Position numbers and translations under genes: made by a program. Below are positions 27,471 through 53,444 of a stretch of DNA of 64,000 bases, in pieces. The DNA comes from Bdellovibrio sp. (GTDB taxonomy: Bacteria > Bdellovibrionota > Bdellovibrionia > Bdellovibrionales > Bdellovibrionaceae), in assembly GCA_031428275.1 (NCBI GenBank), contig JANPPC010000018.1, positions 25,196-89,195 of the forward strand. The letters are read 5' to 3'. The notes beneath the pieces were generated by a model, which was not told the origin of the DNA, did not search any database, and saw only the letters and a program-made list of their open reading frames with translations. Within the stretch, counting starts at the first letter, position 1. The number at the start of each line of letters is the position of its first letter.

Positions 27471-28388
27471 ATGAAACTTCAGCTAACAGACCAAAACCAC
27501 TTTAAATTTGGCTATAACAACAGATTTTTTAACTTTCGAGAAAAATCGACTGATCAATGGTGCGTTAGCTACGGCAGATGCCACCGAGAACCTCTTTCGT
27601 TCAAAGAAGAATGTATTGAAACTGCAAAGAAAATCGAGACAGCTACGAAGCTTCCAATTTGGTTACTTTTTTCTGGCGGAGCCGATAGCGAAGTCGTGCT
27701 GAGATCTTTTTTAATGGCAAAAGTTGCATTTAAAATCGCAATTATGAGGTTTAAGTTTGATCTTAATCTACATGATATTTCAATTGCTGTTAAAATTTGC
27801 GAGCAGCTTGGCTTAAAATACTATTTTTTTGATCTTGATTTGATGGACTTCTGGCATACCAGCCTACTTGATTATACTGAGCCAACCTATTGCATCACTC
27901 CTTTATTGGCGCCACATATGTGGTTGATTGATCAACTGGATGGCTACCCGGTTCTTGGCAGCGGAGAGTGTTTGCTCGTAAAGGATCGTCCACACGACTA
28001 TACGCCAGGCGTAAGTCCCTACGAAGTTTCACAATGGCAGCTCTTCGAGAAAGAAAAAATCGCCGCTTGGTATCGTCACTTGATGCATCGTAATCGCGAA
28101 GGCTGTGCTGGTTTTTTTCAGTACACTCCGGAAATTTTGCTATCGTACTTAAGGGATCCTTTTGTTGAAAACCTAACAAGTTGCAAAATCATCGGAAAGC
28201 TATCAAGCGTTTCATCTAAACTTAAAATTTATCAGCAATATTTTGATATTGAGAATAAAGAAAAATACCACGGTTTCGAGCAAGTAAACGAAAGCAAATT
28301 CCGCGAAGCGTTACTTCTACTAAATCCGCATGCCGATGAAATCGCAAAAACACCAGTCACAAAACTGATTAGGCAATTGAGCTTCTAA
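27471..28388 (+). CDS. PP-loop (SGGxDS) adenine-nucleotide alpha-hydrolase-like protein, paralogue 1
   Basis: LFSGGADSE; shares NHFKFGY, GSGECL, EKEKIAAWY and GFFQYTPE with 38950 and (in part) 39917. Confidence 0.7.
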   Translation: MKLQLTDQNHFKFGYNNRFFNFREKSTDQWCVSYGRCHREPLSFKEECIETAKKIETATKLPIWLLFSGGADSEVVLRSFLMAKVAFKIAIMRFKFDLNLHDISIAVKICEQLGLKYYFFDLDLMDFWHTSLLDYTEPTYCITPLLAPHMWLIDQLDGYPVLGSGECLLVKDRPHDYTPGVSPYEVSQWQLFEKEKIAAWYRHLMHRNREGCAGFFQYTPEILLSYLRDPFVENLTSCKIIGKLSSVSSKLKIYQQYFDIENKEKYHGFEQVNESKFREALLLLNPHADEIAKTPVTKLIRQLSF

Positions 28389-28478
28389 TTGCGTGACGCA
28401 AATTCGAACCAAGTCTTAATTTTCTTCCGATAACCATATTTAAGATTACAATCTTAATATTTCGTCATAGCCTCAGCT

Positions 28479-28820
28479 GTGTCTCTTAAAGATATATTTA
28501 GATCAAATACAGCCTATTTTGTGCCTTTGCAGCTAATAAGTAGTTTTATATTGATCAGCTATTCTATTTTTTTCTCATTTCAATCTTTTTGGATACTCGC
28601 CGGATTGGTCGCTTATTTTTTAACTGGCTGCCTTGGCACAACTCTTACATTTCATCGATATTTGAGTCATCAAAGCTTCAAAATGAACCGCTGGTTTGAA
28701 TACGTATTTAGCTTTCTGGGTTGCATGGGTGGCACAGGTTCTTCAATCGGCTGGGTTGCCGTTCACAAGCAGCACCACTCAAAAACTGACACAGCGTTAG
28801 ATCCACACAGTCCGGGGTGA
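28479..28820 (+). pseudogene. Truncated acyl-CoA/lipid desaturase
   Basis: His boxes 1 (HRYLSH) and 2 (HKQHH) then DPHSPG-stop; third His box absent. About half the length of the intact paralogue at 42914. Confidence 0.8.
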
Positions 28821-28911
28821 GGTTACCCTGTTTTTTAATCGAATTGAAGCATGCGCTCTCCGCCATTCTATCGGCAGATCATTCATGACCACTTTCGTAA
28901 TACACACAAAT

Positions 28912-31113
28912 TTACAAAATTAATTCTAAAGCGGCTTCGACAATTTCTTTCTTCTTCGGTAGGCCAAGAGTCGAAGCGGGGCCAAGTGGAATAAAACAAT
29001 CATCTGCTGAAACGATTTTAATTTTTGGAAACCTATCTAATCGTTCGGCCAGGGCTGTTACGATGGCTTCGCTGAAGCTTCCGGTCTTTCGACACTCTTC
29101 AACGATCAGAATTTTTTTGTAACGGCTGGCGACCAGGGCTACCTTTTCCCAATCAACGGGAGAAAGCCAACGGAAATCTAAAATTTTGACTTTCACTTTG
29201 TGAACAGTGCTAAGCTCTACCTCGGCCTGCCGAGAATAAAAATATCCGTTTCCGTATGTCATAATTAGAAGATCATCACCGTCACCGTAGAGGTTAAATT
29301 GGCCAAGTGGAGTCATCTCTTCTAATTGAGAATAGACCGAGGCCCATAGTTTATCGCCCTCGTTGCACAAATCACGAGTCATATAAAGCGCAATGGGTTC
29401 GATAAAAATACAGACGCGTCCATTTTCGTTAGCTTCTTTTACGCAAGTTCTTAGCATCGTTACCGCATCGGCGCCGTTCGATGGCACGGCTACAATAAGC
29501 CCTGGAATATCACGAAAAACTGCAAGAGAATTATCATTGTGAAAGTGCCCACCAAACCCTTTTTGATACGCAAGTCCGGGAATGCGAACCACCAGGCCAT
29601 TCGTAAATTGCCCTTTTGAAAAAAAGGCCAGTGTGGCCGCTTCTCCACGAATCTGATCTTCGGCATTATGGAAGTAGGCTAAAAATTGAATCTCGCAAAT
29701 CGGTAAAAAATTGTTATGCGCTAAGCCGATCGCTGTCCCTAAAATTGTGGTTTCATCTAAAATAGTATTAAAAATTCTGCGAGCACCAAATTTTTTGTGT
29801 AAACCTTCCGTGACATTAAATACTCCACCTTTTTCGGCAACGTCTTCACCAAAAAGCAACGTATTTTTGTATTGAAGCAGAATATCCTGCAGACAAAAAT
29901 TGATCAGTTTTGCCATATGAAAAACTTGATTCAGCTTTTTATAATCGGTGGCAAATAAAGCTTCGCGTAACGATTCTTCGGAAAGGGGCGGGCCGTTGCG
30001 TTTGGGAATGCACGCAGTAAGCGATTCACTAACCGCAGATTGATTTTCTAAAGCAGGCTTTGCTAACGCCAGGCTTGCGATATGCTTAACCTCGGCACGA
30101 ATATTTTCATAAATTTGGATTAATTCACTTCCCGACGCAACTCCATTTTCAATTATAATTCTTGCTGTATGTAGTAATGGGTCATTAAGTTCTGCCTTTT
30201 GAATTTCTTCTTGCTGTAAATAACTCCGTTCGATGTCTGAACTTGCGTGGCCCATCAGTCTTATTGTTTTCATATGAAGAAAAACAGGCTGGTGTCGGAC
30301 CCTAGAAATTCTTTCGGCATCTTTGGCTTTAACGAATGTATCTAACAAATTGAGTCCGTCACACTGTATGTAGTGCAGAGCTGGTTTTTGGCTAAAGTTA
30401 TTTTCAATCCAATGATTTGGCGTTGAAGTTGAAATGCCAATACCATTATCTTCGCAAATAAAGACAAGAGGAAGCGGGATGTTCTGGTAAGCGATCCAGG
30501 CTGCCGCATTGAAAGCCGCTTGAGCCGAAGCATGATTGATAGAGGCATCACCGAAACTACAAAGCACTACGCTATTTTCGGGAACCGCACCTTGTACCGC
30601 TAAATCCCGCGCGCGCTTGATTGCATAGGCCATTCCCACGGCTTTTGAAAGATGCGATGCGATCGTGCTTGTTTGGGGTGGAATAAATAACGGCTTACTT
30701 CCCAGAACTTTGTGCCGTCCGCCAGATATAGGGTCCGCGCTTGAAGACACGAAAGACAACATTAAATCAAGTAAATGGGTCGAATCTTCTAGCTGCTTCG
30801 AACGCTGGATCATCAACGCGCAACTTCGGTAATGAAGAAAGGCCATGTCAGTGTATAAAAAAGCCTTCCCGAAAGCCGCATTACCTTCGTGGCCGGCGCT
30901 GCCAATCGTGTAAAAACACTTACCTTCATTTTTAAGTAATTGCGCAGCGAAATCGAAGTGTCGACTTGTTGCTTGGCTAGAAAATAGATCTAAAAGCTCG
31001 GTGCCGGTAAGACCCGCCTGCTGAAGTGAAACCTTAATTTTAGATAAGGGAAGATTGCCGCTTTTAATAAGGCGGGTGAAATTTTGATCAATAACATCAG
31101 CGCGATTGTACAT
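28912..31113 (-). CDS. Fused 2-oxoacid dehydrogenase E1 alpha/beta (TPP-dependent)
   Basis: GDA...EDN TPP motif, GEDVAEKGGVF, EIQFLAY and HFHNDN; transketolase-like C-terminus. Confidence 0.85.
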   Translation of the reverse strand: MYNRADVIDQNFTRLIKSGNLPLSKIKVSLQQAGLTGTELLDLFSSQATSRHFDFAAQLLKNEGKCFYTIGSAGHEGNAAFGKAFLYTDMAFLHYRSCALMIQRSKQLEDSTHLLDLMLSFVSSSADPISGGRHKVLGSKPLFIPPQTSTIASHLSKAVGMAYAIKRARDLAVQGAVPENSVVLCSFGDASINHASAQAAFNAAAWIAYQNIPLPLVFICEDNGIGISTSTPNHWIENNFSQKPALHYIQCDGLNLLDTFVKAKDAERISRVRHQPVFLHMKTIRLMGHASSDIERSYLQQEEIQKAELNDPLLHTARIIIENGVASGSELIQIYENIRAEVKHIASLALAKPALENQSAVSESLTACIPKRNGPPLSEESLREALFATDYKKLNQVFHMAKLINFCLQDILLQYKNTLLFGEDVAEKGGVFNVTEGLHKKFGARRIFNTILDETTILGTAIGLAHNNFLPICEIQFLAYFHNAEDQIRGEAATLAFFSKGQFTNGLVVRIPGLAYQKGFGGHFHNDNSLAVFRDIPGLIVAVPSNGADAVTMLRTCVKEANENGRVCIFIEPIALYMTRDLCNEGDKLWASVYSQLEEMTPLGQFNLYGDGDDLLIMTYGNGYFYSRQAEVELSTVHKVKVKILDFRWLSPVDWEKVALVASRYKKILIVEECRKTGSFSEAIVTALAERLDRFPKIKIVSADDCFIPLGPASTLGLPKKKEIVEAALELIL

Positions 31114-31500
31114 CTAAAATCCTGAACACGAAAGTTTGAATCTAAGATCTTCAGCAATCCACAAATCCATACTGATGTGGGCTGCAAATTTAAAAGCCTG
31201 CTTTAGATCGTCATAACTAATGGTATTCTCACGAAAAAACATCATGTACCCTCGACGAAAAATAAAACAAGTTAATTTAGATTTCGGATTCGTTGGTATA
31301 TGTAAATGCTTCTTCAGACTATCATCAAGTAATATAAACGGAACACTCTTAAATAAGTCTGACAAATTTTTTAAGTCCTGCAGTAAGCTTTCTGAATAAT
31401 CCGTATTCATTTCAACATAAAAAGAAAAAATAAGTTCTTCACTTTGGCTTAGCTTGCAAAAATCAGTGAGGGTTAAATCTTTAAAAAATAGACTACCCAT
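31114..31500 (-). CDS. Hypothetical protein (possible redox-inactive thioredoxin-like fold)
   Basis: Coupled between the oxygenase and E1 genes; no CxxC. Confidence 0.55.
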   Translation of the reverse strand: MGSLFFKDLTLTDFCKLSQSEELIFSFYVEMNTDYSESLLQDLKNLSDLFKSVPFILLDDSLKKHLHIPTNPKSKLTCFIFRRGYMMFFRENTISYDDLKQAFKFAAHISMDLWIAEDLRFKLSCSGF

Positions 31501-32176
31501 ATGGCGCCACGGGTAAAGGGGCTAACGCCATTTTTTCAAGCTCTTCAACATCAATACACCCATCCATAAAAATAACGCCGCGATAGTGCGGGCACGGATC
31601 GGCACCGTGGCGAAGGCGTGATTCATTAAATAAGTAATAATGATTTTCTGGCTGAATAGCATACTTTGCACCTTCGTGAAAAACATACGAGTTGCCGTTA
31701 TTGCCGGCAATTTCCGAGATGGGTATTTTTAAAGCCAAACAGTTTTGTTTCTGATGGGCGGGTTCTGTAAAATAATCATGAAACTGTTCGGTCTTTAAGA
31801 AATCGCGAAATAAAACGTTATTTTTGTATTCGAGCTTGTCGCAATGCTCACGAAGGCGCTTTCCGGGTTTCTGTACAAATATTTTAATTCGCGTGGGGGT
31901 GTAGAAGGAAAGTACCGGAGCCATAAGTTTTTTTACCAAATCAGTCAAAGGAGTTGCAAAATACTCCCAGGGAAATTCTTGGTTAAGGCGATTATCATAA
32001 GCTTCTAGGTCGGTGTGACTTTTGGTTCCGCGAATAGAATAGCCATACCAGACATCTTGATCCACGCCATTTTTTACAACTTCGTTGATAATTGAAATTT
32101 GGTCTGTGGGATGCACTTCGAAAGGGAGTTTGAAGAGAAGCTTGTTGCGAAGTAAAAGTTCACTTAAGTTTGACAT
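31493..32176 (-). CDS. Fe(II)/2OG AspH-like oxygenase 1
   Basis: TRIKIF...EHCD (HxD)...RHGAD...YRG. Confidence 0.7.
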   Translation of the reverse strand: MSNLSELLLRNKLLFKLPFEVHPTDQISIINEVVKNGVDQDVWYGYSIRGTKSHTDLEAYDNRLNQEFPWEYFATPLTDLVKKLMAPVLSFYTPTRIKIFVQKPGKRLREHCDKLEYKNNVLFRDFLKTEQFHDYFTEPAHQKQNCLALKIPISEIAGNNGNSYVFHEGAKYAIQPENHYYLFNESRLRHGADPCPHYRGVIFMDGCIDVEELEKMALAPLPVAPYG

Positions 32177-32286
32177 CTGAATCAACTATAGCCACTTCTG
32201 TAAAGGTGTTGCAAAGGAGGAGCGCCGCACTAATCAATATAGTTGCCCGAATGGGCGAACTTTGCTTGAATCAGTCAGAGGTAAAA

Positions 32287-33390
32287 ATGAAGTCTAAAAA
32301 GCTGATAGCCGATAATTTTATTAAACTTCATTTAGAAAAGTATGGCCTAAACGGAACCAATACTCAAAAGAATCCGCCAGCAAATTTTCCAGTGTGGTCA
32401 GCTAAAACTTCTGAAAAACAATTAAGCCAGATAACGGGAGTTAAATTTGGCTACAATGGTCAGGTTTTCAATTGGCGAGAAAGCTCAACGTGCATGTTCT
32501 GGGTTGATTACGGAAACGAAAGCGGTGCCTTGCCGACAACTTTTTTATCTGAATGCCTAAAGGCCGTAGATCAAATAGCCAATCGATACAGTACTTTCAG
32601 CATACCTTTTTTAGGTTCAACATTTAGCCAGGTTTTATTATCCATCGTATCTGAAACCCAGCATAATTATCGAATTACAATCCCGGCCTGCTTAGATTGC
32701 CCAGCTTTAAATTTTGAGTCTGAGTTTAATTCTAAAATTAATTTTGATCGCAAATATACGACCCTTGTCGAAACGATTGAGTTTTCTGAAGAAGAGTTTG
32801 TAGCATTTCTTCGCGAGATGACGGCCGAAGTAAGGTGTGCGGACCCGATTGTCGCATTCTCGGCCTTTATTGGAGCGCGATCCCAGTTTGCTCAAGTCTA
32901 CCATTCACCGTGGCCAGAAATACGAGATGAAAATTTTGACATCGTCGGTAACAAGGCAGTTGGTCCAAGTAATTGGAATGTCGTCGATAATGAAAGTCAT
33001 TTTGCAATTGCCCGCTACCTATTGAAAAAAAATAAAGAAGGAATCCACAACTTATTTTATTCTTATCCCAACATTTTTTTTGCTATTTTAAATGAAGCGG
33101 TCTGGAAACAGTGGATTAAGAAAGCCATGGAAGACAGCGATCGCCAATCTAGTTCAGAAAATTTTTTAAACGGAAAGTTTTTAGCTGAGTATTTTCCAAA
33201 TCTTTATGAGCCTACTTCTTGGATCTCGGGAATTAGCCACTTACTAAAGTTTAAGGAAGAGCTTTTGCAACATTATCCTAAAGCAAATGAAGCTTGGCTG
33301 ACACCCCTATACAGATTAATTGAGAAGCGGAAAATTCATTATGATTTTCAGTTGAATCTAAATGAATCAATTTATGGACTCGTACTTTGA
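32287..33390 (+). CDS. Degenerate PP-loop paralogue (loop lost)
   Basis: KFGYNGQVFNWRE...VDYG aligns with the 27471 N-terminus, but FLGSTFSQ replaces FSGGxDSE; start after gaggt SD. Confidence 0.6.
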   Translation: MKSKKLIADNFIKLHLEKYGLNGTNTQKNPPANFPVWSAKTSEKQLSQITGVKFGYNGQVFNWRESSTCMFWVDYGNESGALPTTFLSECLKAVDQIANRYSTFSIPFLGSTFSQVLLSIVSETQHNYRITIPACLDCPALNFESEFNSKINFDRKYTTLVETIEFSEEEFVAFLREMTAEVRCADPIVAFSAFIGARSQFAQVYHSPWPEIRDENFDIVGNKAVGPSNWNVVDNESHFAIARYLLKKNKEGIHNLFYSYPNIFFAILNEAVWKQWIKKAMEDSDRQSSSENFLNGKFLAEYFPNLYEPTSWISGISHLLKFKEELLQHYPKANEAWLTPLYRLIEKRKIHYDFQLNLNESIYGLVL

Positions 33391-33920
33391 ACCCGCTGGC
33401 TGATACGAACTTATCTGTCAAAGTCGAATATAAGATTATTAGTTTTGAAGATTGGCGTAAAGCAGTTATGCCCATGTGGAGTTGGATAAAATTTCACACT
33501 TGGATCCCGATTATAAATAATCCGTACGGCATGATTCAGTACTGTGGTGAAGAAGTGTTTTCACGATTGATTCAATTTCCAATTGCGGCATTCGTTGATG
33601 ATAAACCGGTCGGTTGGTCATTAGTTTATAATGTGTCTGATACGGTGATTCGAGTCCGAGGTGTCTACGTACTTCCCGAGGCTCGAGGTTTGGGAATCGG
33701 AACAGGTCTATATGACTTTGCCTTAAGTTTATGGCCAGAGCCGTGGACTCAGTATATTGGGTATTATGACTCTAAATCTTTAAAACATTTTATGAGAACT
33801 TGGGACTTGAAGCCAATCGCGCAATACTCTTTAAGGCATCGACAAATCCCAGCAACCAAGCAGGCAAGCGAACCTATACAATTAGCTTATCGAAAAATAA
33901 AGTTAACTGAGAAACAATAG
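33387..33920 (+). CDS. GNAT acyltransferase
   Basis: RVRGVYVLPEARGLGIG; TTGA overlap with the upstream gene. Confidence 0.8.
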   Translation: MNPLADTNLSVKVEYKIISFEDWRKAVMPMWSWIKFHTWIPIINNPYGMIQYCGEEVFSRLIQFPIAAFVDDKPVGWSLVYNVSDTVIRVRGVYVLPEARGLGIGTGLYDFALSLWPEPWTQYIGYYDSKSLKHFMRTWDLKPIAQYSLRHRQIPATKQASEPIQLAYRKIKLTEKQ

Positions 33921-34949
33921 TGGCAAAGTGATATCTGCATCTAAATAAGAAAACTTTTTTCGATCAACATTACCCGCTGAAATAAGACACACGGTGAATG
34001 AGTCTGTATCATCAGCATTACATTTTCGAACGGCTGAAATTACGGTTGCGGCCGAGGGTTCTATTCGAAAGCCCGAATGATATTTGGTAAGTGACATGGC
34101 CTCGAGTATTTCATTTTCAGAAACGGTAATAACCTGGTCTACGTTTGAAAGAAGAATTTCTTTATATTCTTTTCTGACCATGGGTGATCGTAAAGAGTCT
34201 GCAATGGTTGAATTGCAATCCATAGAATCTATATTCTTGTTGTAATAAAGTTGAAAAAAGTCACTTGCCATTTCGGGCTCAACGCCGACGATCGAAACGT
34301 CGTTGCCCATCAAAGACTTCAAAGCAACGCTACAGCCAGTTAACAATGCGCCCGAACCAATCGGACAAACAAAGCGCAGCCGTGTTTTGTTCTGAACTTT
34401 CATAAACTCTTGAAGTTGGCCAAAAACTTCAAGTCCAATTGTACCTTTAGCCGCAACCTCGTGACTGCGATCCGCTAGAAAAAATGGTAATTTGCCCTCT
34501 GTCGCGGCGATTCCCTCGACAACCTGGTAGCGCTCTTCTTCACGCAATCCTTTTTGAATAATTTTAATATTTGGCAAGTTGTAATCCTTTAAACTTTGAA
34601 TTTTTTCGCAAACGGCATCTTCTGGAATTACGATCGTCACATTAATATTTTTGTTAAACGATTGAATAGCATACAAAAAACCCCACGCTAAATTGCCGGG
34701 AGTCGTAAAAACAAGTCCGCGCTTAAAATGTTCGTCAGAAAGTCTAGAAAATATTCCTAAAGCGGCGCGAACTGTAAAGCTATTAGTTACCTGAAGGTCT
34801 TCACGCTTTAATAATACATTTCCAGTGTTGCCTTTTGAAAGCCAAGAACACGTTTGCAGCGGAGTCAAATTTAGATACGGCGCAAGTGTTTGCGAAAATT
34901 GTACAATGTCCTGAAGAGTGACTGAAACATTTTCATTTGAAAACTTCAT
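33903..34949 (-). CDS. Threonine/serine dehydratase-like PLP fold-II protein lacking the Schiff-base lysine
   Basis: LKREDLQ.T.SF(T)VR, PGN, PIGSGAL, VGVEP, EPSAA and SAGNVD; the SFK lysine is Thr59. Confidence 0.75.
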   Translation of the reverse strand: MKFSNENVSVTLQDIVQFSQTLAPYLNLTPLQTCSWLSKGNTGNVLLKREDLQVTNSFTVRAALGIFSRLSDEHFKRGLVFTTPGNLAWGFLYAIQSFNKNINVTIVIPEDAVCEKIQSLKDYNLPNIKIIQKGLREEERYQVVEGIAATEGKLPFFLADRSHEVAAKGTIGLEVFGQLQEFMKVQNKTRLRFVCPIGSGALLTGCSVALKSLMGNDVSIVGVEPEMASDFFQLYYNKNIDSMDCNSTIADSLRSPMVRKEYKEILLSNVDQVITVSENEILEAMSLTKYHSGFRIEPSAATVISAVRKCNADDTDSFTVCLISAGNVDRKKFSYLDADITLPLLFLS

Positions 34950-35516: not shown

Positions 35517-35521
35517 AGTGA

Positions 35522-45381: not shown

Positions 45382-45382
45382 G

Positions 45383-46222
45383 CTAAGGATATAAATCTTC
45401 TTGGCTTTCTAAATTGGCCACCAAATGTAATCGCGGCGCGGCGCCTTTATTTGCCACATAATGCGTGTAGCCCGTATTAACATACCACATTTTACCGTCG
45501 GCCGGCATATGCGCAGTCGTCACTTTTGTGCCATCCGTTATGTAATTAAAAGTCGAATCCAAATTTGTAAAAATAGGTATGTGCACTCGAATAGAATAAT
45601 CTGTGTTGTAATCAATGTGAGGCTTGCCCTCGAAGCCGGGCATCAATACGGCAAGCCTGACGCGGGTAAATTTAGCCTTGAATGAGTTCAATATTTCTAG
45701 AAGCATGCCTTTGGCGTTGTCTCCAGGAACATTATAATTTCGCTCATCGAGTTGAGGCTTGTATTCGATCGAGTCTCTCTCTATTGCGCATCGAATCGCT
45801 TTTCTTTTGTCAGTTATAGGATCTAAAAAATTAATATTCGGATATTTTTTTGAGTCAAATTTTGTAATAGCTAGTTGCCGATACATTCGTCCATTATGAA
45901 GACCGCGTGCTCGTAAGGACTCTTCGTCACTAATAAAGCGGGTATGAGTCTCATTGTACTGGTTGCAAAGATGTACATACTCACCGCCAAAATCTAAATC
46001 TGAATATAGAGAATAATTATCGAAGCCGAATTTAATAATTTCTTTCTGAAGAGCAACAATATCAAGGGCCGGTCGAGGCAAGACTTTAAACAAGGGAAGA
46101 TGCTCTCGTGTTAATTTCATCGATAATTTTGATTCTGCAGAATCTAACATTGTTGCCCCCTTAGCTACATTAGTTTTAACGGGGAAGACTGAAGCGTCAA
46201 TAAAAACTATATTCTGGTTCAC
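45383..46222 (-). CDS. Fe(II)/2OG AspH-like oxygenase 6
   Basis: TRVRL, KPHID, RVHIPI and THYVAN...PRLH. Confidence 0.8.
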   Translation of the reverse strand: MNQNIVFIDASVFPVKTNVAKGATMLDSAESKLSMKLTREHLPLFKVLPRPALDIVALQKEIIKFGFDNYSLYSDLDFGGEYVHLCNQYNETHTRFISDEESLRARGLHNGRMYRQLAITKFDSKKYPNINFLDPITDKRKAIRCAIERDSIEYKPQLDERNYNVPGDNAKGMLLEILNSFKAKFTRVRLAVLMPGFEGKPHIDYNTDYSIRVHIPIFTNLDSTFNYITDGTKVTTAHMPADGKMWYVNTGYTHYVANKGAAPRLHLVANLESQEDLYP

Positions 46223-46286
46223 AAGACCTTCGTCAAAATATGTCGTGAACGAAGATTCAAGGCAAAAATTAATATATAATTATTGT

Positions 46287-47189
46287 ATGGAAGTATTATG
46301 GCTGGTCTCGCTATTAACACCGATAACTTATGCGATATCGGTTATAGAAGCGGGAATATTATCGTATTTTTTAAAGAAATCTTATGACTGGCATGCAGCT
46401 TGTGCAAACTGGGCTTGTGGGCTTGGCAAAACAATTGTCTACCTGTTTCCATATTCTATCCACGTGCCGATTTTTAGATATGTATGGGATAATCGAATTT
46501 TTGACTTATCAATTACGTCCGAGGTTAATTTAAAGAATACTTGTCTTGTAATTGCATTACTAGTGGGACAAGATTTCTGCTATTACTGGAGCCATCGTGT
46601 TTCCCACCATGTTCGTTGGTTTTGGGCAAATCATGTTGTCCATCATTCGTCAGCGCAGCTAAACTTGAGTGCGGCTTTTAGAAACGGATGGTTTACAAAG
46701 TATAACGGGACCTATTTATTTCTAATTCCTTTGATTTGGCTTGGTTTTTCGCCTTGGTTAGTATTATTTGCACTGTTTTTGAATGTCTACCAATTCATTA
46801 TTCATAATACATGGACTCCGCGACTAGGTTGGCTTGAGTATGTATTTAACACGCCCTCTTCTCACCGCGTGCATCATGCTAAAAATTCAGAATATATTAA
46901 TGCTAATTTCGGCGGCATATTTATTGTTTTCGATATTATGTTTGGAACCTATGTAGCAGAAAAAAAAGAAATTCCATGCCAATATGGGGTAGAAAATCGC
47001 GAAACGGATTACAATCCGATAAATATCGAATTGATAGAGTGGAAACATTTCTACAGGGATTTAAAAAGCTCAAAAAATTTAGGCGAAGCTTTAAATTACC
47101 TAATCAAAGCCCCTGACTGGATGCCCGCCCGATATTTAAATCCAAAGATAGGACCTGACAAGAAGTTAGAGACTGAAAAAGTTAGTTAA
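46287..47189 (+). CDS. Sterol desaturase / fatty-acid hydroxylase family (AGMO-like)
   Basis: HRVSH, HVVHHSS, FIIHN, HRVHH and NFGGIF. Confidence 0.88.
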   Translation: MEVLWLVSLLTPITYAISVIEAGILSYFLKKSYDWHAACANWACGLGKTIVYLFPYSIHVPIFRYVWDNRIFDLSITSEVNLKNTCLVIALLVGQDFCYYWSHRVSHHVRWFWANHVVHHSSAQLNLSAAFRNGWFTKYNGTYLFLIPLIWLGFSPWLVLFALFLNVYQFIIHNTWTPRLGWLEYVFNTPSSHRVHHAKNSEYINANFGGIFIVFDIMFGTYVAEKKEIPCQYGVENRETDYNPINIELIEWKHFYRDLKSSKNLGEALNYLIKAPDWMPARYLNPKIGPDKKLETEKVS

Positions 47190-47836
47190 ATAGGTAACTT
47201 AAAAAGTGGATTTACCTGACTCCAAGCTTTGAACTCTTTAAAGCTGATCCCGAAATTAATAACTAAATGAACTCGCTCAACTTTTTCTGAAAAATTAAAA
47301 AAAGCATGTGGGACAGTTGAATCAATAGCAAAACATTTTCCAACGGGCATGTGCACTTTCTCGACCAGCTTATTTCCTGAATAAAAACAAAAAACATTTT
47401 TTTCATCTGTTACAATAGGCCAATGTACTCGGGTTACATTCTCTGAGAAATCATCAATGTGCCTTGGGACACTACTTCTAGGCTGCATTTTGGAAAACCG
47501 AGCTCGCAGGGGCTTAAGACTCAACGAATTAAAAATTTCTTCCATGTAATGCGTAACATTTTTATTCCATACAGAAATTGACTGCCAGTCATATTCGGAT
47601 AGTTTTTTTTCGAAAGTGCCTACTGACTGAAGTACATTTACGGAATCATTTTCATGATCTTCGTTTTTAGACCTCGAAGTTAAACCAATTCCTGAATAGC
47701 CACCGAAATTTTCGCCATATTCAGAGTAGTCTACCCATTTTTTTTCATCTAAATAGGTCAGAGCTCGATCAACATTTAGGTTGAATGTATCGGGAAGCTG
47801 CGTCCAGTATTGTGGTGAATTAAATTGGGATTTAAT
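47186..47836 (-). CDS. Fe(II)/2OG AspH-like oxygenase 7, probable ATT start
   Basis: Frame is open 97 codons upstream of the tracked ATG. AAGAGGAG SD lies 6 nt before ATT at 47836. Carries FGGYSGIGLTS, PRHID and PHAF...ERVH. Confidence 0.75.
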   Translation of the reverse strand: MKSQFNSPQYWTQLPDTFNLNVDRALTYLDEKKWVDYSEYGENFGGYSGIGLTSRSKNEDHENDSVNVLQSVGTFEKKLSEYDWQSISVWNKNVTHYMEEIFNSLSLKPLRARFSKMQPRSSVPRHIDDFSENVTRVHWPIVTDEKNVFCFYSGNKLVEKVHMPVGKCFAIDSTVPHAFFNFSEKVERVHLVINFGISFKEFKAWSQVNPLFKLPI

Positions 47837-48000: not shown

Positions 48001-48444
48001 ATGAAGCGTAGAAGTTTAATTAAGCTATCATTTTCACTAAGTATATTAAGTTTTTTAGGACTTTATTCAAACTCTGAATATTCCAGCGGCGGCAAATTGG
48101 AAGTCATCTTCAAATTACCCGAAGGAATGTCATTTAAAGAATATGAGCAAACTGTTCCGAGATGGGTCAATTTTAGCAAATTCAAAAGCGTTTTGTCTAA
48201 ATACTATTACCAAGGAACTTTGCTTAGGACTCAGAAAATTTACGACGACTCAAGAACGCTAAGAACTGTTTACCACTTTACGAATGAAAAAACAGCTCTC
48301 CAGTTCTGTGAAGAATCGATGAAGTCGTGTAATTATAACTTTGCGGCTCGAGATAGCTTAGGAATTCAAACAAAAACATACATTAACGGAAAAAGAAAAG
48401 AATTTACTACAGCGCGAGGCCTGGGCCTTACAGTAAAGGGCTAA
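48001..48444 (+). CDS. Hypothetical protein with twin-arginine-like signal
   Basis: MKRRSLIKLSFSLSILSFLG. Confidence 0.6.
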   Translation: MKRRSLIKLSFSLSILSFLGLYSNSEYSSGGKLEVIFKLPEGMSFKEYEQTVPRWVNFSKFKSVLSKYYYQGTLLRTQKIYDDSRTLRTVYHFTNEKTALQFCEESMKSCNYNFAARDSLGIQTKTYINGKRKEFTTARGLGLTVKG

Positions 48445-48487
48445 AAAGCATTCGAAATTATAAATTCTTCTAAAGCGATGGTACAAA

Positions 48488-49153
48488 TTGAACCTTCCTC
48501 AAATCAGAAAACTTTCTGAAACTGACTTAGACCAAATAGTCAAAATTAATCTGCAACATTCAAAAGTGATGGGTCTGCTAAAAAATAGTAATTACGACCA
48601 AAACTTTTTTGATAATATTCTTTTATTTTTTAATAGTTCTCAACGGTATATTCTTGGTGCTTTTGAAGAAGAAAAATTAGTTTCGTTTATTTGTGTTATT
48701 CATTGGAACACTCTACCGTACTGGACATTTGTGAATGCCAAAGCCATTCCATTCTTGAGAGGAAATACTTTTCAACCAAGCATGAACGGAATTGCACCAC
48801 TGATATCAAAAGTTTTAACTGATGAACTTCAAAATAATAGATTTATTTATTGGTTTTTAACTTCTCAAAAACGCATTAAAGGCCACCGAAATTATTGGAG
48901 TCGATTTGTTCCTGAACTCGAAAAATTTTATTTCATATCTAGAGTCATTAAAAAAGATTATCGCCCACGATCTGACTTTGTCTGGGACCTAATGGGGAAG
49001 CAAGTCTGGAGCAAGGACTTGGTCATTCGGATCGGTGTTGAAAAATCTCATTTCGAATTATTGGCTCCATATGAAGAACTATTTGCCATTATTAACAAAC
49101 CAAATGCGAACTTAAGCGAACTGAATGATACAGAAGCCATTTTAGAGTGCTGA
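48488..49153 (+). CDS. GNAT-like hypothetical protein
   Basis: IRKLSETDLDQIVKI...ILGAFEEEKLVSFI resembles a GNAT N-terminus. Confidence 0.5.
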   Translation: MNLPQIRKLSETDLDQIVKINLQHSKVMGLLKNSNYDQNFFDNILLFFNSSQRYILGAFEEEKLVSFICVIHWNTLPYWTFVNAKAIPFLRGNTFQPSMNGIAPLISKVLTDELQNNRFIYWFLTSQKRIKGHRNYWSRFVPELEKFYFISRVIKKDYRPRSDFVWDLMGKQVWSKDLVIRIGVEKSHFELLAPYEELFAIINKPNANLSELNDTEAILEC

Positions 49154-49190
49154 AAAAAAATGACAATTTACGCATTAGCCAGAAAATATT

Positions 49191-49425
49191 TCATAAAGAT
49201 CTACTAAGCTTGAATCTAAGCATCCTAATAAAATCTTCGTGAAGACCCCGCGCGTTTAAAGTTGCCATCAGTAAAGTAAGTCGATGAGAGGGAGTAACGA
49301 TCTTCACTTTTAGAAATATCAAACCCGTTTGATCTGCTAAATCCGAAAACTTGATGTGTTTTTGAATATTGATCAAAAAGAAATTTACCGAAGCCGCAGG
49401 AATGACCCGTCAATGAAATTTGCAT
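49191..49425 (-). pseudogene. Short-chain dehydrogenase (SDR) remnant
   Basis: TGHSCGFG Rossmann motif and GFSRSNGFDI, then homology is lost within about 45 aa. Confidence 0.7.
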
Positions 49426-49555
49426 GATTAAATGATAGTATGCTTAATTAAAAATAAAAAGTTCTATTTTTTGAAATTTCAATGATGAGAAAATCGCATA
49501 CAGAATTGTCGATTGCGTCTTGTCGTAACCGTTCTGGCGTTTCTATAATACCATT

Positions 49556-50077
49556 ATGAAAACTCATTTTTACATCAGAATGTTGCTGCTTTTACCGATC
49601 TTTGTGAATGTATTAGCGTGCCAAACTAAGCCGCCTGCTCAAGAAGAAATTGCTTTACCTTTTGTACTGAAGTCCCAATTTGAAAACCTACTTCAAAATC
49701 AAAATATCCGGTGGAGATCATACTCGACCGATAACCAGGTTGAGGCCGATAAGCTTTTTGTTTCTTTATTGAAAACTATCAATAATTCGACTACGCCAAC
49801 GGTAGATCCATACTCGGGTCGACAGCAAGTGCCATCTTTTTGCCAAGGCTCCAATTTACCCAGTATAATAGAGGCCAAATCCGAAACAGAGCGATCCGCC
49901 ACATTTAGTTTGTATGCTATGCCTAACTTTTTTTTAGGTTGTCTTGGCACAGAACGCCTCAAAGCGCAGGCACTAATTCTTTACTGCAAAAAAAGCGGAA
50001 TTGTTTTTTCAATTCTGACTTTGCTTCCGGGTAAGAATACGACCTGGCCGAATGAGGCCGTGGGGCATTGCAAATAG
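49556..50077 (+). CDS. Lipoprotein, hypothetical
   Basis: Lipobox VLAC; three further Cys in the mature part plus a C-terminal Cys. Confidence 0.65.
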   Translation: MKTHFYIRMLLLLPIFVNVLACQTKPPAQEEIALPFVLKSQFENLLQNQNIRWRSYSTDNQVEADKLFVSLLKTINNSTTPTVDPYSGRQQVPSFCQGSNLPSIIEAKSETERSATFSLYAMPNFFLGCLGTERLKAQALILYCKKSGIVFSILTLLPGKNTTWPNEAVGHCK

Positions 50078-50108
50078 CGTAATCTGCCGCTAGGCTGTTG
50101 TGTAAAAC

Positions 50109-51005
50109 ATGGGGTTATGTAAGATGAACAGCTGTTTAAAGAAGTTTGTTATTCTCGCTTTTATAAGTTTTTTCTCGGTAAACACCGTAGCCGATCAGAC
50201 AATGAACGAATTAAAACTGTCGCAGTTCGGGGATTTCGTAACCAATTGGAAGCTTGTTACAGTTCGTTATCGAAAAGATTCTGAAGAAATGCGATTTACA
50301 TACTCGAACGATTTAGCTTGGAATGCCTTATCAAAAAATTTATCGGTTTATCCTGACGGAGCTATTTTTGCGAAGGTCAGCTTTGTTTCAGTCGAAGACC
50401 CCTTATTTCCTAGCTCTGCAGTACCTGCCGGTGCTCGGCGTATTCAGTTTATGGTTCGCGACGAAGAAAAATATAAATCTACCAACGGTTGGGGTTATGC
50501 GTTGTTTGATTCCGAAGGCAATACCTACCCTGGCGATATGAAAGCCGCGACCATGGGCTGCGCAGTCTGCCACGACGTTGCAAAAGAGCGTGGTTATGTT
50601 TTTTCACAAATTATGGGACAGCCACTATCTAAAGATGTGTTCGCAAGCTCTTGGCGAACCCAAAATAAGTTTGTCGACTTTAAAGTTAAAAGTTTGCCCT
50701 TATCTATACAACAGTCGCTTCCGCGCGCAGATAAGAAAGTTCGTAAACTTGAGGGGCCGCTAGCCGACTATATTTTCTTTGGAACGCTTGATGAAATTAA
50801 GCCTCTTCTTGCGAAAGAGGCTATCGAATCAAAAATGACAACACTACTTTTAAGCAAAGATAATAAATCCTATTCGCTAGTTACATTTGATACCACTTCG
50901 AGATGCGAAAAAGACGAGGTGGCTTTAATTGGAAAACACTCAATTAACTCTGCCAAAGTAAGTTACTTAGAGACACGTTTTTGTGCGAAAGCAAAGAATC
51001 CGTGA
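50109..51005 (+). CDS. Cytochrome P460-like c-type cytochrome with extra C-terminal domain
   Basis: YPDGAIFAK, QFMVRD, GWGYALF and CAVCH...GYVFS. Confidence 0.75.
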   Translation: MGLCKMNSCLKKFVILAFISFFSVNTVADQTMNELKLSQFGDFVTNWKLVTVRYRKDSEEMRFTYSNDLAWNALSKNLSVYPDGAIFAKVSFVSVEDPLFPSSAVPAGARRIQFMVRDEEKYKSTNGWGYALFDSEGNTYPGDMKAATMGCAVCHDVAKERGYVFSQIMGQPLSKDVFASSWRTQNKFVDFKVKSLPLSIQQSLPRADKKVRKLEGPLADYIFFGTLDEIKPLLAKEAIESKMTTLLLSKDNKSYSLVTFDTTSRCEKDEVALIGKHSINSAKVSYLETRFCAKAKNP

Positions 51006-52102
51006 AATGGTTTTTACTTTTCTTTAGCATTTCGTCATTGATTGGTATTTTATCAAGTTGTTCTAGTTTTAGATCGGGCCCATTTGCGGCTTCAAAAGGC
51101 GAAGATTTTTTTTCGTATAATTGCAAAATAGTTAATAAATCAGGAAAACTGATTCGACTCTTCAAGGGCGACGTGTGTGACTATTTTAATGACGGCCATG
51201 TAATCGTAGCAAGTCAGAAGAATCTTTCTTTGGTATCTCCTTCCGGGGGAGTTCTTTGGACCAAAAACATAAACTGTCACCATATGGTTCGTGGTACAGA
51301 TATCGATCAATTTATTGTTCTAAATTCGTCTTTTAATACATGGGACAGAACATTTTTGCGCTTCGACAGAGTCAGTATTTTTAACTTGAAAGGCGACGAA
51401 ATAAATTATTTCGATTTTTTTGAGAGCCGGGATCAGCTCTTACCTCTGATCAAAAATTCACTTAAATACTTAGATCGCGCAACTTATAAAACTTTGCAGC
51501 AGCCCGGAGATTTTTTGAATGTCGAGCGATCTGAAAAATTTCGACCTGTTTTTTATGAGTTTTCCCACGCAAACTCAGTGTATAAAATTTCTGCTAATCG
51601 TCTTTCAAAAAAAAATCCGGCATTCGCTGAAGGAAATTATATTGTTAATGCCGCCGGAATTAATTTGGTTTTTATCCTTGATAAGAATTTAAAAAAAGTC
51701 TTGTGGTCTTTAGAATCGGTCAGCGATTTTATTCACGACGTGCAGGTAACTCCAGAAGGAGAATTACTTTACTTTAATAACACGTTTGATTCTAGCTACT
51801 CTTCAATCGAACTACTAGATCCGATATCACTTAGACGAACGATTCTATTCAACGGAAATGCCGAAAATAAATTTAGGGCAGAATCTCAAGGAAGTGTACA
51901 GCGCTTGCCAAACGGCAATTATTTAGTTTCAAAATTTGATCCCCGCGAATCGCAAGTCCTAGTTATTGGAGAAAAAGGGCAAATAATAGCCACGCGATAC
52001 CCAAAAAGTATGGGCTCGACCGGTTACAATCTTGACGGGCTCCAAGAGGTTAAAAAGCTAGATTTAGAACTTTTCTTAAAAAATAACAAACCTCTTTTTT
52101 AA
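51002..52102 (+). CDS. Arylsulfotransferase (ASST)-like beta-propeller lipoprotein
   Basis: GTGA-coupled start, lipobox LSSC, CHH, SHANSV, IHDVQ and GSVQRLPNGNYL. Confidence 0.65.
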   Translation: MKWFLLFFSISSLIGILSSCSSFRSGPFAASKGEDFFSYNCKIVNKSGKLIRLFKGDVCDYFNDGHVIVASQKNLSLVSPSGGVLWTKNINCHHMVRGTDIDQFIVLNSSFNTWDRTFLRFDRVSIFNLKGDEINYFDFFESRDQLLPLIKNSLKYLDRATYKTLQQPGDFLNVERSEKFRPVFYEFSHANSVYKISANRLSKKNPAFAEGNYIVNAAGINLVFILDKNLKKVLWSLESVSDFIHDVQVTPEGELLYFNNTFDSSYSSIELLDPISLRRTILFNGNAENKFRAESQGSVQRLPNGNYLVSKFDPRESQVLVIGEKGQIIATRYPKSMGSTGYNLDGLQEVKKLDLELFLKNNKPLF

Positions 52103-52126
52103 TCACTAAAGGTTACAGAAATAATT

Positions 52127-52921
52127 ATGAAAAATTTGAAGTACGAAGCAACCAAATTGATCGGTGTAAATGGGAAAGCATTCGTGAATATGGATCCGTT
52201 TTTAAAGACGGCAGATTTTGTAGCTCTCGAATCGGAAGCGAACGTCGGATTTGCAAAAAGTAGAAACTTCACGCATGCGTACATTTTGGGTGAGACCTGT
52301 CCGTGGGAAAAAGATCGCTTTCCTCAACCCCTCGAAGCTGAAATTTTCGCGGATATCGATCATTACGATCCGTCTGGAAAACATCGGACTCTTATGCAGG
52401 GTATGAAAGCCCAAGAAAAACGAAGGTATGTGTACTTTGCTCTCAAGGCGCACAGCCCATGGTATGCAACTTTGTATCTAAGGCACGAGCATTTTCGGGC
52501 TAAAACAGAGTCCAACTTAAATAACGATTGGGCACCAGACGCCGCTCATTTTCCGCTTCTAGTTAATTATATTGAAAGTCTGCAAGAATCGCTTTTTGAA
52601 AGTATCGGACGCGTTTTATTTTTTATTAGTTACCCCGGGGTTGCAACAATTTGTCATCGTGATTTTTTTGTGGAAGATCACCGCGATCACAGTATTAACA
52701 TATACTTAAAAGAATCAAGAAAGGCATATGTTTGGGACGGGCTCAAGAATAATAAAATCTATCTCGATCCCGGAATCAGAAGCTATTTTTTTAATAATCG
52801 AGATTTTCATGGCGTCGATGCAGAATCTTATTTTAATTATACTTTAAGAATTGATGGCCAATTTAAACAGACGGTTCTCGATCAAATAGGCATACCCTCT
52901 GGTATTTTAAATATCAGTTAG
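52127..52921 (+). CDS. Fe(II)/2OG-like cupin oxygenase 8
   Basis: IGRVLFF, CHRD and FNNRDFHGVD. Confidence 0.6.
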   Translation: MKNLKYEATKLIGVNGKAFVNMDPFLKTADFVALESEANVGFAKSRNFTHAYILGETCPWEKDRFPQPLEAEIFADIDHYDPSGKHRTLMQGMKAQEKRRYVYFALKAHSPWYATLYLRHEHFRAKTESNLNNDWAPDAAHFPLLVNYIESLQESLFESIGRVLFFISYPGVATICHRDFFVEDHRDHSINIYLKESRKAYVWDGLKNNKIYLDPGIRSYFFNNRDFHGVDAESYFNYTLRIDGQFKQTVLDQIGIPSGILNIS

Positions 52922-53444
52922 CTGAGGTCGAAAACACTAGATGAGTTCGCTCAAAGGTTCTATTAGCATTTATCGGCGTGTGAAAATGATTCGTACGCAA
53001 AGTGTACAAGGTTCCTTCTTTCAACATCCTATACACGATGTCATCCACGACGAAGAAACAGGCTCGATTTGTATAGATAGGAATGTGAAAACGAATTTCT
53101 TCGGTATCTTTATGATAAGAAAGGCAAGTTTTTGGCCTTAGGGTCATAAACCGAATACGCCCGATCGATAAATTGAACTGCTCTAAAGCGATCTGTTTGA
53201 CGTTTGAAATAACGTCAAACATGGGGTTATTAGCCCCTTCAACTAGTTCTGAAAAATCAGCTTCCGTGAAAAGCAACTTATGTGGGTTTTTTGGATCAAT
53301 AGCTGAACCACAGCCATCTGTGTACAAAGGTTGGTTTGGTCTTGTAGTTAAAGAAACCTGTGACCCGCTGCCAAGTTGTTTAATCGACTCAAAGTAAGTG
53401 CGAATTTTATTTACATCAAATTGAAAATTAAGCTCTTGAATCAT
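52914..53444 (-). CDS. Fe(II)/2OG AspH-like oxygenase 9
   Basis: GRIRFM, SYHKD, RFHIPI and FHTPIN...ERTH. Confidence 0.8.
   Translation of the reverse strand: MIQELNFQFDVNKIRTYFESIKQLGSGSQVSLTTRPNQPLYTDGCGSAIDPKNPHKLLFTEADFSELVEGANNPMFDVISNVKQIALEQFNLSIGRIRFMTLRPKTCLSYHKDTEEIRFHIPIYTNRACFFVVDDIVYRMLKEGTLYTLRTNHFHTPINANRTFERTHLVFSTSAN

Follow-up and report, generated by a model that had tools for sequence, protein, structure and literature searches.

A horizontally acquired accessory island in Bdellovibrio links a putative PP-loop/GNAT unit to hydroxylases and desaturases that recur in huge uncultured phages

Introduction

PP-loop enzymes such as AsnB and beta-lactam synthetase, and likewise LarE, TilS and QueC, carry an SGGxDS-type loop after their first Rossmann-like strand, and in the AsnB/beta-lactam synthetase class a carbonyl or carboxylate is adenylated at the expense of ATP and then attacked by a nitrogen or sulfur nucleophile. 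In the WbpG/PseA-type N-acetyl-sugar amidotransferases, a PP-loop enzyme uses the product of an N-acetyltransferase and converts an acetamido into an acetamidino group. The tailoring of ornithine lipids and lipid A employs GNAT (OlsB), AspH-like (OlsC/LpxO) and fatty acid (FA) hydroxylase (OlsE) enzymes on an amino-acid-containing lipid, and Cpz10 of caprazamycin biosynthesis hydroxylates an aminoacyl-nucleoside intermediate (PMC9814697). Enzymes of this kind are also borne by phages: the searched text of one paper reports that the delta-9 desaturases of cyanophages (viral fatty acid desaturases, vFADs) are experimentally active (PMC5776448), and that of another describes AspH-like genes as part of the pelagimyophage core, with a stearoyl-CoA desaturase (SCD) in the freshwater members (PMC7029224). 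Here we describe a 26.2-kb island of Bdellovibrio sp. that combines PP-loop, GNAT, AspH-like, desaturase and FA_hydroxylase-family genes, and that lies in a stretch of 64,000 nucleotides (positions 25196-89195 of contig C18) referred to as the window.

The island resembles each of these systems in part. Its PP-loop proteins (hereafter PP) share the loop of the AsnB/beta-lactam synthetase class, the chemistry of which would be expected of them by fold, but they have no glutaminase domain, are only 305-340 amino acids (aa) long, reach template modeling (TM) scores of only 0.3-0.44, and pair or fuse with a loop-dead paralogue and with GNATs. No sequence match was found to the WbpG/PseA-type enzymes, and the island holds no sugar-nucleotide genes. 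Ornithine-lipid and lipid A tailoring, which draws on the same three superfamilies, serves as our working analogy, although the Ols and Lpx pathways have no PP-loop enzyme and the hydroxylases of the island have no membrane anchors. Cpz10 (7V4F) is the nearest solved relative of these hydroxylases and is like them in its size (~180-220 aa), its HxD...H triad and its stand-alone cupin architecture (PMC9814697), whereas the island contains no nucleoside-antibiotic genes and many hydroxylase paralogues occur per locus. The cyanophage and pelagimyophage genes are alike as phage-borne auxiliary genes, but the searched text of the two papers makes no mention of a linked PP-loop/GNAT unit (PMC5776448, PMC7029224), and our literature search found nothing relevant on PP-loop, hydroxylase and desaturase genes together in phages or on desaturases in huge or jumbo phages.

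Results

The genome comprises 3.0 Mb in 50 contigs, and both junctions of the island fall within one 89.6-kb contig. About 32 open reading frames (ORFs) were listed between the left flank (clpP, clpX and the S13 carboxypeptidase gene, PBP4) and lon (Table 1), and the borders of the insertion agree with the discrete 26-kb island proposed by a first-pass annotation of the window. In the closest relative among the compared genomes (G008, with a Lon protein 98% identical) the order is clpX, PBP4, 150 bp, lon. By blastn, positions 3070-4657 and 4807-8000 of this locus (L014), which enclose those 150 bp, correspond to window positions 25758-27341 and 53526-56762; G008 DNA as a whole aligns to 22799-27341 and 53526-56762, with no alignment to the island between them. 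The gap from clpX to lon measures 0.4-4.5 kb in all 12 same-genus genomes that have both genes on one contig, the closest relative and 11 other congeners, none of which has the island, and the two genes are neighbours in other families of the order. The composition of the island, which the first-pass annotation had proposed to compare with its surroundings, is atypical: at 38.7% its GC content is below the 41.6% of the genome (1.2 percentile of 26-kb genome windows), and its tetranucleotide distance stands at the 98.2 percentile of such windows. Its absence from this conserved site in close relatives and its atypical composition identify the interval as a mosaic accessory island gained by horizontal transfer. 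No flanking direct or att-like repeat, tRNA or recombinase was found at its borders, no integrase domain (Pfam) or tRNA within it, and no Rfam match or tRNA gene adjoining it. Beyond lon, on its right, the window holds two tRNA-Val(TAC) genes spaced 4.4 kb apart (58411-58486 and 62795-62870). Pfam and NCBIfam scans of the interval detected no nonribosomal peptide synthetase (NRPS), polyketide synthase (PKS) or acyl carrier protein, so that the earlier statement that these and an integrase are missing stands. A known anti-phage defence system was rejected, as ten representative island proteins gave no match to any PADLOC model, and no PHROGs family was found for ten island proteins.

Five genes of the island, named here and below by the first coordinate of their entry in Table 1, belong to one PP-loop family, three with an intact loop and two with a degenerate one, in agreement with the five paralogues first annotated. 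The motif FSGGxDSE shows no variation among 61 homologues or among 27471, 38917 and 39917; all-against-all BLASTP gave 56% identity between 27471 and 38917, and 39917 forms a clade of its own with copies from loci L002, L015, L115 and L133. Several cysteines are conserved in the family, and the predicted isoelectric points (pI) are near neutral, at 6.6-8.1. At least 233 close homologues exist, none of them named, and at E <= 1e-10 the family comprises approximately 1,286 representative clusters among 1.84 billion proteins; searches of Pfam, NCBIfam and PHROG returned no model of its own. Against the curated QueC model (TIGR00364) the score was 22.4 bits, with a cut-off of 150.3, no further NCBIfam model matched, and a search of PDB sequences with the PP profile gave only marginal matches to QueC and NAD synthetase. 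Foldseek, used on the predicted PP structure, returned beta-lactam synthetase, AsnB and LarE as the top solved matches, followed by TilS and MnmA, all with a probability of 1.0, and in BFVD a protein of an 'uncultured Caudovirales phage' matched with a TM-score of 0.88. The SGGxDS-type loop and Rossmann-like alpha/beta fold place these proteins in the PP-loop superfamily, and scores below the curated cut-off and a length too short for a glutaminase domain set them apart from QueC, AsnB and TilS specifically; as judged from the structural model, the family is a new branch of the superfamily. In a FastTree phylogeny built from 119 PP proteins, viral sequences make up the deep diversity, and all bacterial copies, those of the island included, share a single clade of 55 rows in which viral sequences also occur; the island copies cluster with bacterial rather than viral sequences. 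Sampling for this tree was biased by the search patterns and no direction of transfer is drawn from it.

A sixth, solitary PP-family paralogue lies outside the island (C41:22177-23154), 29% identical to 38917 and closest to copies of G003, next to proteins of 345 and 545 aa without assigned function. The complete 2.66-Mb genome of G003 (G003:C1), a member of the same genus, has seven PP-family copies over six places, all no more than about 140 kb from the coordinate origin of the record (37-109 kb and 2.52-2.62 Mb), which suggests a large flexible region around that origin.

HHalign identified both loop-degenerate proteins, 32170 (PP*) and 38082, as full-length relatives of the PP-loop family, and each adjoins a GNAT gene. 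The genes of PP* and its GNAT partner 33387 overlap by 4 bp, and the 38082-type paralogue stands beside a GNAT gene in L102, L115, L126 and L131 as well. In homologues from other loci the same parts occur as fusions, namely PP::PP* (P0241, P0242), GNAT::PP (P0052, P0323), PP::GNAT (P0265) and 34950-like::PP (P0050, P0299, P0303), which ties them into one composite enzyme; a triple PP-PP*-GNAT fusion was not demonstrated for P0372, whose middle 340 aa are without a family match. A minimal PP-PP*-GNAT triad is retained in Alphaproteobacteria. In the isolate Bradyrhizobium denitrificans LMG 8443 (L121, 3878-18451) it forms an apparent operon, with genes for an S9 prolyl oligopeptidase, a GT4 glycosyltransferase, a glutamine-synthetase-like ligase, a cupin and HlyD/AcrB-type export of the resistance-nodulation-division (RND) class as neighbours. 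The conserved core of the system is, to judge from these gene arrangements, a composite enzyme of three parts: an intact PP-loop ATPase, a loop-degenerate paralogue and a GNAT acetyl- or acyltransferase. Four GNATs had been annotated initially; Pfam supports 33387 and 37604, the fold supports 34950, and HHalign gave no support for 48488. The nearest structures to 34950 by Foldseek are aminoglycoside, polyamine and glyphosate N-acetyltransferases (AAC(6'), SpeG and PaiA at TM 0.6-0.67). A LuxI/FeeM-like identity of this protein was rejected, since neither was among the top fold matches, which were ordinary small-molecule GNATs.

The soluble oxidative enzymes are mostly AspH-like Fe/2-oxoglutarate (2OG) hydroxylases. 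The five proteins that match PF05118 do so with 32.8-44.4 bits, above the gathering threshold of 22.6; H123, D125 and H171 are invariant in the family, and R181 is nearly so. All six AspH-profile matches of the 3.0-Mb genome fall within the 26-kb island, a clustering far beyond chance. Nine oxygenases with an HxD motif had been counted by the first-pass annotation, and all nine carry it, whereas family membership extends to seven: 43754 has a weak DUF6445 match, and 52127 has HxD motifs. Homologues of 36295 occur in phage loci L059, L075 and L085, and the 52127-like family is present in 11 of 80 viral loci. The frame of 47186 is open and homologous over ~221 aa, with a segment (GGYSGIGLTS) resembling the family N-terminus, whereas the ORF that begins at 47545 encodes 119 aa; no ATG, GTG or TTG codon was found upstream within the open frame, which points to loss of the start codon or to an unusual start. 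Compared with known structures, the AspH-like profile was far closer to Cpz10 (E 4.6e-22) and L-proline cis-4-hydroxylase (4.8e-13) than to human AspH (1e-4), and the score against the curated LpxO model (NF033391) was 23.7 bits, with a cut-off of 500. The hydroxylases, at 176-279 aa and without predicted transmembrane segments, differ from AspH proper, LpxO and OlsC; thus the surface-protein hydroxylation and LpxO/OlsC-type chemistry suggested at the outset are left without specific support.

The membrane enzymes comprise desaturases and an FA_hydroxylase-family protein. Three His boxes, HRxxSH, HRxHH and HNxHH, and 2-3 hydrophobic segments characterize the desaturases as delta-9-type membrane enzymes, with a score of 88 against the DesA equivalog cut-off of 400. 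As annotated earlier, one of the three, 28479, is broken; a full-length PP-desaturase pair is present in G014 (L008). The predicted sterol-desaturase/hydroxylase was likewise borne out by PF04116 at 46245, which scored 66.3 bits against the OlsE model (NF052566; cut-off 475). The small and polytopic membrane proteins at 40861 and 41301, retained beside a PP gene in L104 at 40% and 50% identity, had been regarded as an HTTM-like pair, an assignment that Pfam does not support: it gave only DoxX at E 0.54 and MauE at 3.8, and no HTTM even at E <= 5. The stop codon of 43754 overlaps the start of the 44584 desaturase by 4 bp, and short overlaps thus join different families (PP*-GNAT, PP-PP-small membrane protein-polytopic membrane protein, and DUF6445-desaturase), an arrangement consistent with co-expression.

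Nearly every island gene has its closest homologue in other Bdellovibrionota metagenome-assembled genomes (MAGs). Related islands occupy different chromosomal sites in congeners G012 and G020. The island of G012 (a 'Bdellovibrionales bacterium RIFCSPHIGHO2_01_FULL_40_29' contig) has three AspH-like genes, a desaturase, a B12-radical-S-adenosylmethionine (SAM) gene, a 36295-like gene (63%), a polytopic membrane protein, two 34950-like genes, three PP genes and one GNAT. In MAG GFS_3043, one 42.7-kb contig carries two syntenic blocks of 58-82% identity, the first of which holds the PLP fold-II (PALP), GNAT, PP* and, further along, fused E1 genes. The second block begins with a 38082-like gene, a membrane protein, PP, a 36295-like gene, two AspH-like genes and a 34950-like gene, and continues with a desaturase (74%), a 43754-like gene (59%), a desaturase (70%), two AspH-like genes (73% and 82%) and a 48001-like gene. 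Across 40 relatives PP and AspH-like genes co-occur (8/9 versus 5/31, Fisher p = 1.3e-4), and beyond Bdellovibrionota the PP family was found in an Archangium MAG, Thermoanaerobaculia and Alphaproteobacteria.

The same enzyme set is present in uncultured phages. A scan of IMG/VR for the PP-loop gene yielded 86 relatives, from which 80 loci were kept, 63 of them after dereplication. By tblastn with island proteins, 60 of the 80 loci have a small desaturase in the same locus (within ~10 kb of PP) and 21 have an AspH-like gene. Clustering of ORFs in the 63 dereplicated loci found a desaturase in 40, GNAT and AspH-like genes in 24 each, a 211-aa family without a name in 20, a 390-aa PP-like family in 19, B12-radical-SAM in 17, a further radical SAM in 11, FA hydroxylase in 11, a TctC-like receptor in 10, and SDR (short-chain dehydrogenase/reductase) and TauD in eight each; sulfotransferase genes are also among the partners in relatives and phages. 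Of 18 phage records, 8 encode a large terminase, among them each of the three with a completeness of 90% or more (608, 349 and 345 kb), so the viral records that carry PP are genuine phages, several of them huge. The occurrence of PP-loop, AspH-like, desaturase, GNAT and SDR sets in large uncultured phages, put forward in the first-pass annotation, has thus been confirmed, as has the co-occurrence of the member families elsewhere that it made a check of its proposal. The recurrence of the set in huge phages marks it as a real mobile module, and the gene neighbourhoods in phages and in Bdellovibrionota argue that its families form a co-occurring module and not a random accretion. Cultured phages differ: no PP-loop homologue was found among GenBank phages or in PHROGs, and AspH-like and desaturase matches in GenBank phages come only from Pelagibacter phage Mosig and from a record that in fact represents an Acinetobacter chromosome. 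Desaturase homologues are very rare there (3 of 50,697 records), and two of the three are Acinetobacter records resembling mislabelled bacterial DNA.

In one of these Acinetobacter records (L135; CAKLQH020000002.1, 'Acinetobacter phage MD-2021a', 254 kb) the 14.7 kb around the desaturase carries trpBC, btuB, baeSR and aidB; it looks like a bacterial chromosome, and the desaturase on it is not to be taken as borne by a phage. In several huge-phage loci, among them L065 (12121-15080) and L068 (12123-13400), tandem proteins of ~100 aa (cluster c7) directly follow PP or PP-like genes. These proteins, which lack a counterpart in the window, may serve as substrates or as small partners.

The remaining genes of the island are more diverse, and the Pfam matches of four of them agree with the PLP fold-II (pyridoxal phosphate-dependent type), fused E1, P460-like and ASST-like proteins first annotated. 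The fused E1, a thiamine pyrophosphate (TPP)-dependent component, has a 72% ortholog in the syntenic island of GFS_3043; it is common in Bdellovibrionota at ~60% identity yet missing from 14 of 15 same-genus genomes, and so arrived together with the island. In 33903 the Schiff-base lysine is replaced by threonine (NSFTVRA), and as the 67% ortholog of GFS_3043 keeps the substitution, it is a conserved feature and not a sequence error; the protein is probably a non-canonical enzyme or a pseudo-enzyme. The lipoprotein-like, P460 (50109, plus strand) and ASST-like (50981, plus strand) genes, for which no homologues were found in any compared locus, are labelled putative periplasmic cargo. The SDR remnant that had been proposed is weakly supported: the translation of the region reads MQISLTGHSCGFGK and then runs into stops, with a TGxxxGxG-like motif.

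Table 1. Coordinates in the window of the island, its flanking genes and its predicted genes, with the supporting evidence.
Feature	Coordinates	Strand	Evidence or remark
Island, 26.2-kb insertion	27342-53525	n/a	Between PBP4 (S13) gene and lon promoter region
clpP	23645-24295		Left flank (ORF listing and translation)
clpX	24299-25591		Left flank
S13 D-Ala-D-Ala carboxypeptidase (PBP4)	25652-27334	(-)	Left flank
Intact PP-loop ATPase, LFSGGADSE	27471-28388	(+)	QueC just under cut-off; AlphaFold2 pLDDT 94.7
Truncated delta-9-type desaturase, N-terminal 113 aa	28479-28820	(+)	PF00487 33.2 bits; 55% identical to 42914
Fused E1 alpha/beta TPP-dependent 2-oxoacid dehydrogenase component	28912-31113	(-)	E1_dh, Transket_pyr and Transketolase_C
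Small conserved protein	31114-31500	(-)	No Pfam match; 36% homologue at same position in L133
Distant AspH-like cupin, HxD	31493-32185	(-)	Family profile c3 E 3.6e-5; 64% ortholog in L133
Loop-degenerate PP-loop paralogue (PP*)	32170-33390	(+)	HHalign against PP family 99.4%, E 1.4e-21; loop PFLGSTFSQ
GNAT acetyltransferase type 1, partner of PP*	33387-33920	(+)	PF00583 31.1 bits
PLP fold-II (threonine-dehydratase-like) protein	33903-34949	(-)	PF00291 140 bits
GNAT-fold protein type 3	34950-35516	(-)	No Pfam match; AlphaFold2 pLDDT 88
AspH-like Fe/2OG hydroxylase	35522-36193	(-)	PF05118 44.4 bits; HxD...H triad aligns
Divergent AspH-like cupin	36295-36966	(+)	Profile c3 E 2.7e-16; 63% ortholog in G012
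AspH-like Fe/2OG hydroxylase	36977-37603	(+)	PF05118 33.6 bits; 64% ortholog in G012
GNAT acetyltransferase type 2, partner of second degenerate PP	37604-38275	(-)	PF13508 and PF00583
Second loop-degenerate PP-family paralogue	38082-38951	(-)	HHalign 92.9%, E 3.7e-7; loop ILDDGSVVA
Intact PP-loop ATPase, type A	38917-39936	(+)	FSGGxDSE
Intact PP-loop ATPase, type B, separate old clade	39917-40864	(+)	37-40% identical to other PP copies
Small transmembrane protein	40861-41304	(+)	Transmembrane prediction; 4-bp overlap with upstream PP gene
Polytopic membrane protein	41301-42134	(+)	Transmembrane prediction; 4-bp overlap with 40861 gene
Exported/anchored protein	42141-42899	(+)	No Pfam match; no homologue in any compared locus
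Delta-9-type membrane desaturase, HRLLSH/HRDHH/HNNHH	42914-43648	(-)	PF00487 62.4 bits; 74% ortholog in L126
DUF6445-like putative oxygenase	43754-44587	(+)	PF20043 23.3 bits, cut-off 24; 59-60% orthologs in L102, L126
Second intact membrane desaturase	44584-45381	(+)	PF00487 39.4 bits
AspH-like Fe/2OG hydroxylase	45383-46222	(-)	PF05118 35.8 bits
FA_hydroxylase-family membrane di-iron enzyme	46245-47189	(+)	PF04116 98.6 bits
AspH-like gene, late ORF start 47545	47186-47764	(-)	PF05118 41.2 bits
Protein without Pfam match	48001-48444	(+)	43-45% homologue in L126
Protein without Pfam match	48488-49153	(+)	
Putative SDR N-terminal remnant	~49228-49425	(-)	tblastn to phage/bacterial SDR cluster weak, E 0.09-0.7
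Lipoprotein-like ORF, P460-domain protein and ASST-like protein	49556-52102	(+)	PF16694 83 bits; PF14269 41 bits
Family shared with phage islands, cluster c24, HxD motifs	52127-52921	(+)	Profile c24 E 2.5e-91
AspH-like Fe/2OG hydroxylase, right border	52914-53444	(-)	PF05118 32.8 bits
lon	53749-56253		Right flank

Discussion

Our findings highlight an accessory tailoring or biosynthetic cluster, as we class it, built on AANH, GNAT, 2OG and di-iron enzymes. The component superfamilies are known, and phage-borne desaturases and AspH-like genes have already been reported; what appears to be undescribed is threefold: the PP-loop family, the obligatory way in which it pairs with GNATs and a loop-dead paralogue, and the tight association that it shows, in Bdellovibrionota islands and huge phages, with genes for radical-SAM enzymes, hydroxylases and desaturases. 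The explanation that we favor, to which we assign a probability of about 0.4, is that an NRPS-independent ligase/acyltransferase core acts together with oxidative tailoring enzymes to produce an amphiphilic amino-acid-containing metabolite or envelope lipid. Functional readings of this kind rest on folds, fusions and neighbourhoods. In the proposed sequence of events, a heterodimer of intact and degenerate PP-loop proteins would adenylate a carboxylate or amide carbonyl, which an amine would then attack, as in AsnB and beta-lactam synthetase, and the GNAT would acylate an amino group on the substrate molecule of the PP-loop pair itself. The soluble hydroxylases would modify the amino-acid-like part and the membrane di-iron enzymes the acyl or alkyl chain, so that the product would be built without NRPS or PKS and decorated combinatorially, while the fused E1 and the PLP-fold protein could provide an unusual acyl or keto-acid unit. 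The first-pass annotation had called the island scaffold-less, with its substrate probably made elsewhere. This is doubtful, as the conserved and often fused composite of PP, pseudo-PP and GNAT belongs to a fold class that makes amide bonds, and the unit may itself construct the scaffold. Modification of an envelope lipid stays plausible because of the membrane desaturases and hydroxylase, and phages would employ the module to remodel the envelope or metabolite pool of the infected cell.

Several observations weigh against this explanation. The TM-scores of the PP model to solved PP-loop enzymes are low, so that the reaction type is extrapolated from the core of the superfamily, and no acyl-carrier or acyl-activating gene was found in the island. 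Gene content is highly variable among related loci, the P460, ASST-like, E1 and PALP genes do not recur in phage loci, and the island contains decayed genes (the truncated desaturase, the start-less AspH-like gene and the SDR remnant). The alphaproteobacterial triad, moreover, occurs without desaturases, so that the PP unit may have a substrate other than that of the membrane enzymes. It is on observations of this kind that the main rival draws, an explanation that we hold to be unlikely by itself, in which independent accessory genes merely share the hypervariable regions of phages and bacteria with no common pathway, membrane lipids being the substrates of the desaturases, free amino acids those of the hydroxylases and some other metabolite that of the PP/GNAT unit. 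The order as well as the content of the genes differs in nearly every locus, pseudogenes and a right-hand cargo unique to this island fit such a collection, and in pelagimyophages the AspH-like core genes come, in the searched text of the paper, with no stated link to a PP-loop gene (PMC7029224). On the other hand, PP lies within ~10 kb of a desaturase in three quarters of the viral loci despite the rarity of desaturases in phages, overlaps of a few bases link soluble with membrane enzymes, and the families co-occur phyletically.

The intact and degenerate PP pair also invites readings in which the substrate is a peptide or a nucleic acid. AsnB-like enzymes include the lasso-peptide cyclases, and B12-radical-SAM enzymes, beta-hydroxylases, GNATs and sulfotransferases are common tailoring types of ribosomally synthesized and post-translationally modified peptides (RiPPs). 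An AsnB-like PP pair might thus cyclize or amidate a ribosomal peptide that GNAT, AspH-like, B12-radical-SAM and sulfotransferase enzymes tailor, a view consistent with the prolyl oligopeptidase and RND export genes that flank the Bradyrhizobium triad and with the tandem ~100-aa ORFs that follow PP genes in some huge phages. We consider it improbable, as the island has neither a precursor-like small ORF nor the intergenic room for one, no leader peptidase, RiPP recognition element or RiPP-specific Pfam family, and the PP proteins have no lasso-cyclase N-terminal domain; membrane desaturases and FA hydroxylases are, in addition, non-RiPP enzymes. The pairing of an intact with a degenerate subunit is known for Ctu1/Ctu2, and the pair might, like Ctu1/Ctu2 or TilS, act on an anticodon base, with GNAT, radical-SAM and 2OG enzymes as further base modifiers of use to huge phages with translation genes. 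The structures of TilS, MnmA and a tRNA methyltransferase subunit among the Foldseek matches, weak PF03054/QueC annotations on PP homologues and the conserved cysteines speak for such a role in the modification of tRNA or other nucleic acids. The near-neutral pI, the lack of RNA-binding domains, the lack of an Rfam or tRNA gene beside the island and an integral-membrane desaturase as the tightest genomic partner make it more improbable still than a RiPP. That a foreign fragment, from a phage or another organism, was mis-joined into a MAG contig would explain the atypical composition in a 50-contig assembly, but it is the least probable of these alternatives: the contig that holds both junctions has core genes in collinear order to the left and right of the island, nearly all island genes have their nearest homologues in other Bdellovibrionota MAGs, syntenic blocks included, and the PP genes group with bacterial and not viral sequences.

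Carried further, the preferred explanation of a ligase/acyltransferase core with oxidative tailoring leads to a proposal that we regard as doubtful: a new NRPS-independent amide-forming machine would, with the hydroxylases, desaturases and radical-SAM enzymes around it, make a new class of decorated amino-acid lipids or lipo-amino-acids. By means of this pathway huge phages would rewrite the envelopes of the cells they infect, and they and predatory Bdellovibrionota would have exchanged it. The predatory lifestyle of the organism that carries the island is inferred from taxonomy alone. The island is a case of gene exchange between Bdellovibrionota and phages, with an insertion site that is well defined, and Bradyrhizobium denitrificans LMG 8443, as a cultured carrier of the minimal triad, makes the question accessible to bench work. 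If such a reading is right, a protein family of ~1,300 representative clusters, for which Pfam, NCBIfam and PHROG have no model, would gain a function, and the marked persistence of AspH-like, desaturase and radical-SAM genes in huge phages and in those of the pelagimyophage-like kind would find an explanation. The auxiliary functions of phages would thereby be extended by a module of several enzymes that is possibly biosynthetic.

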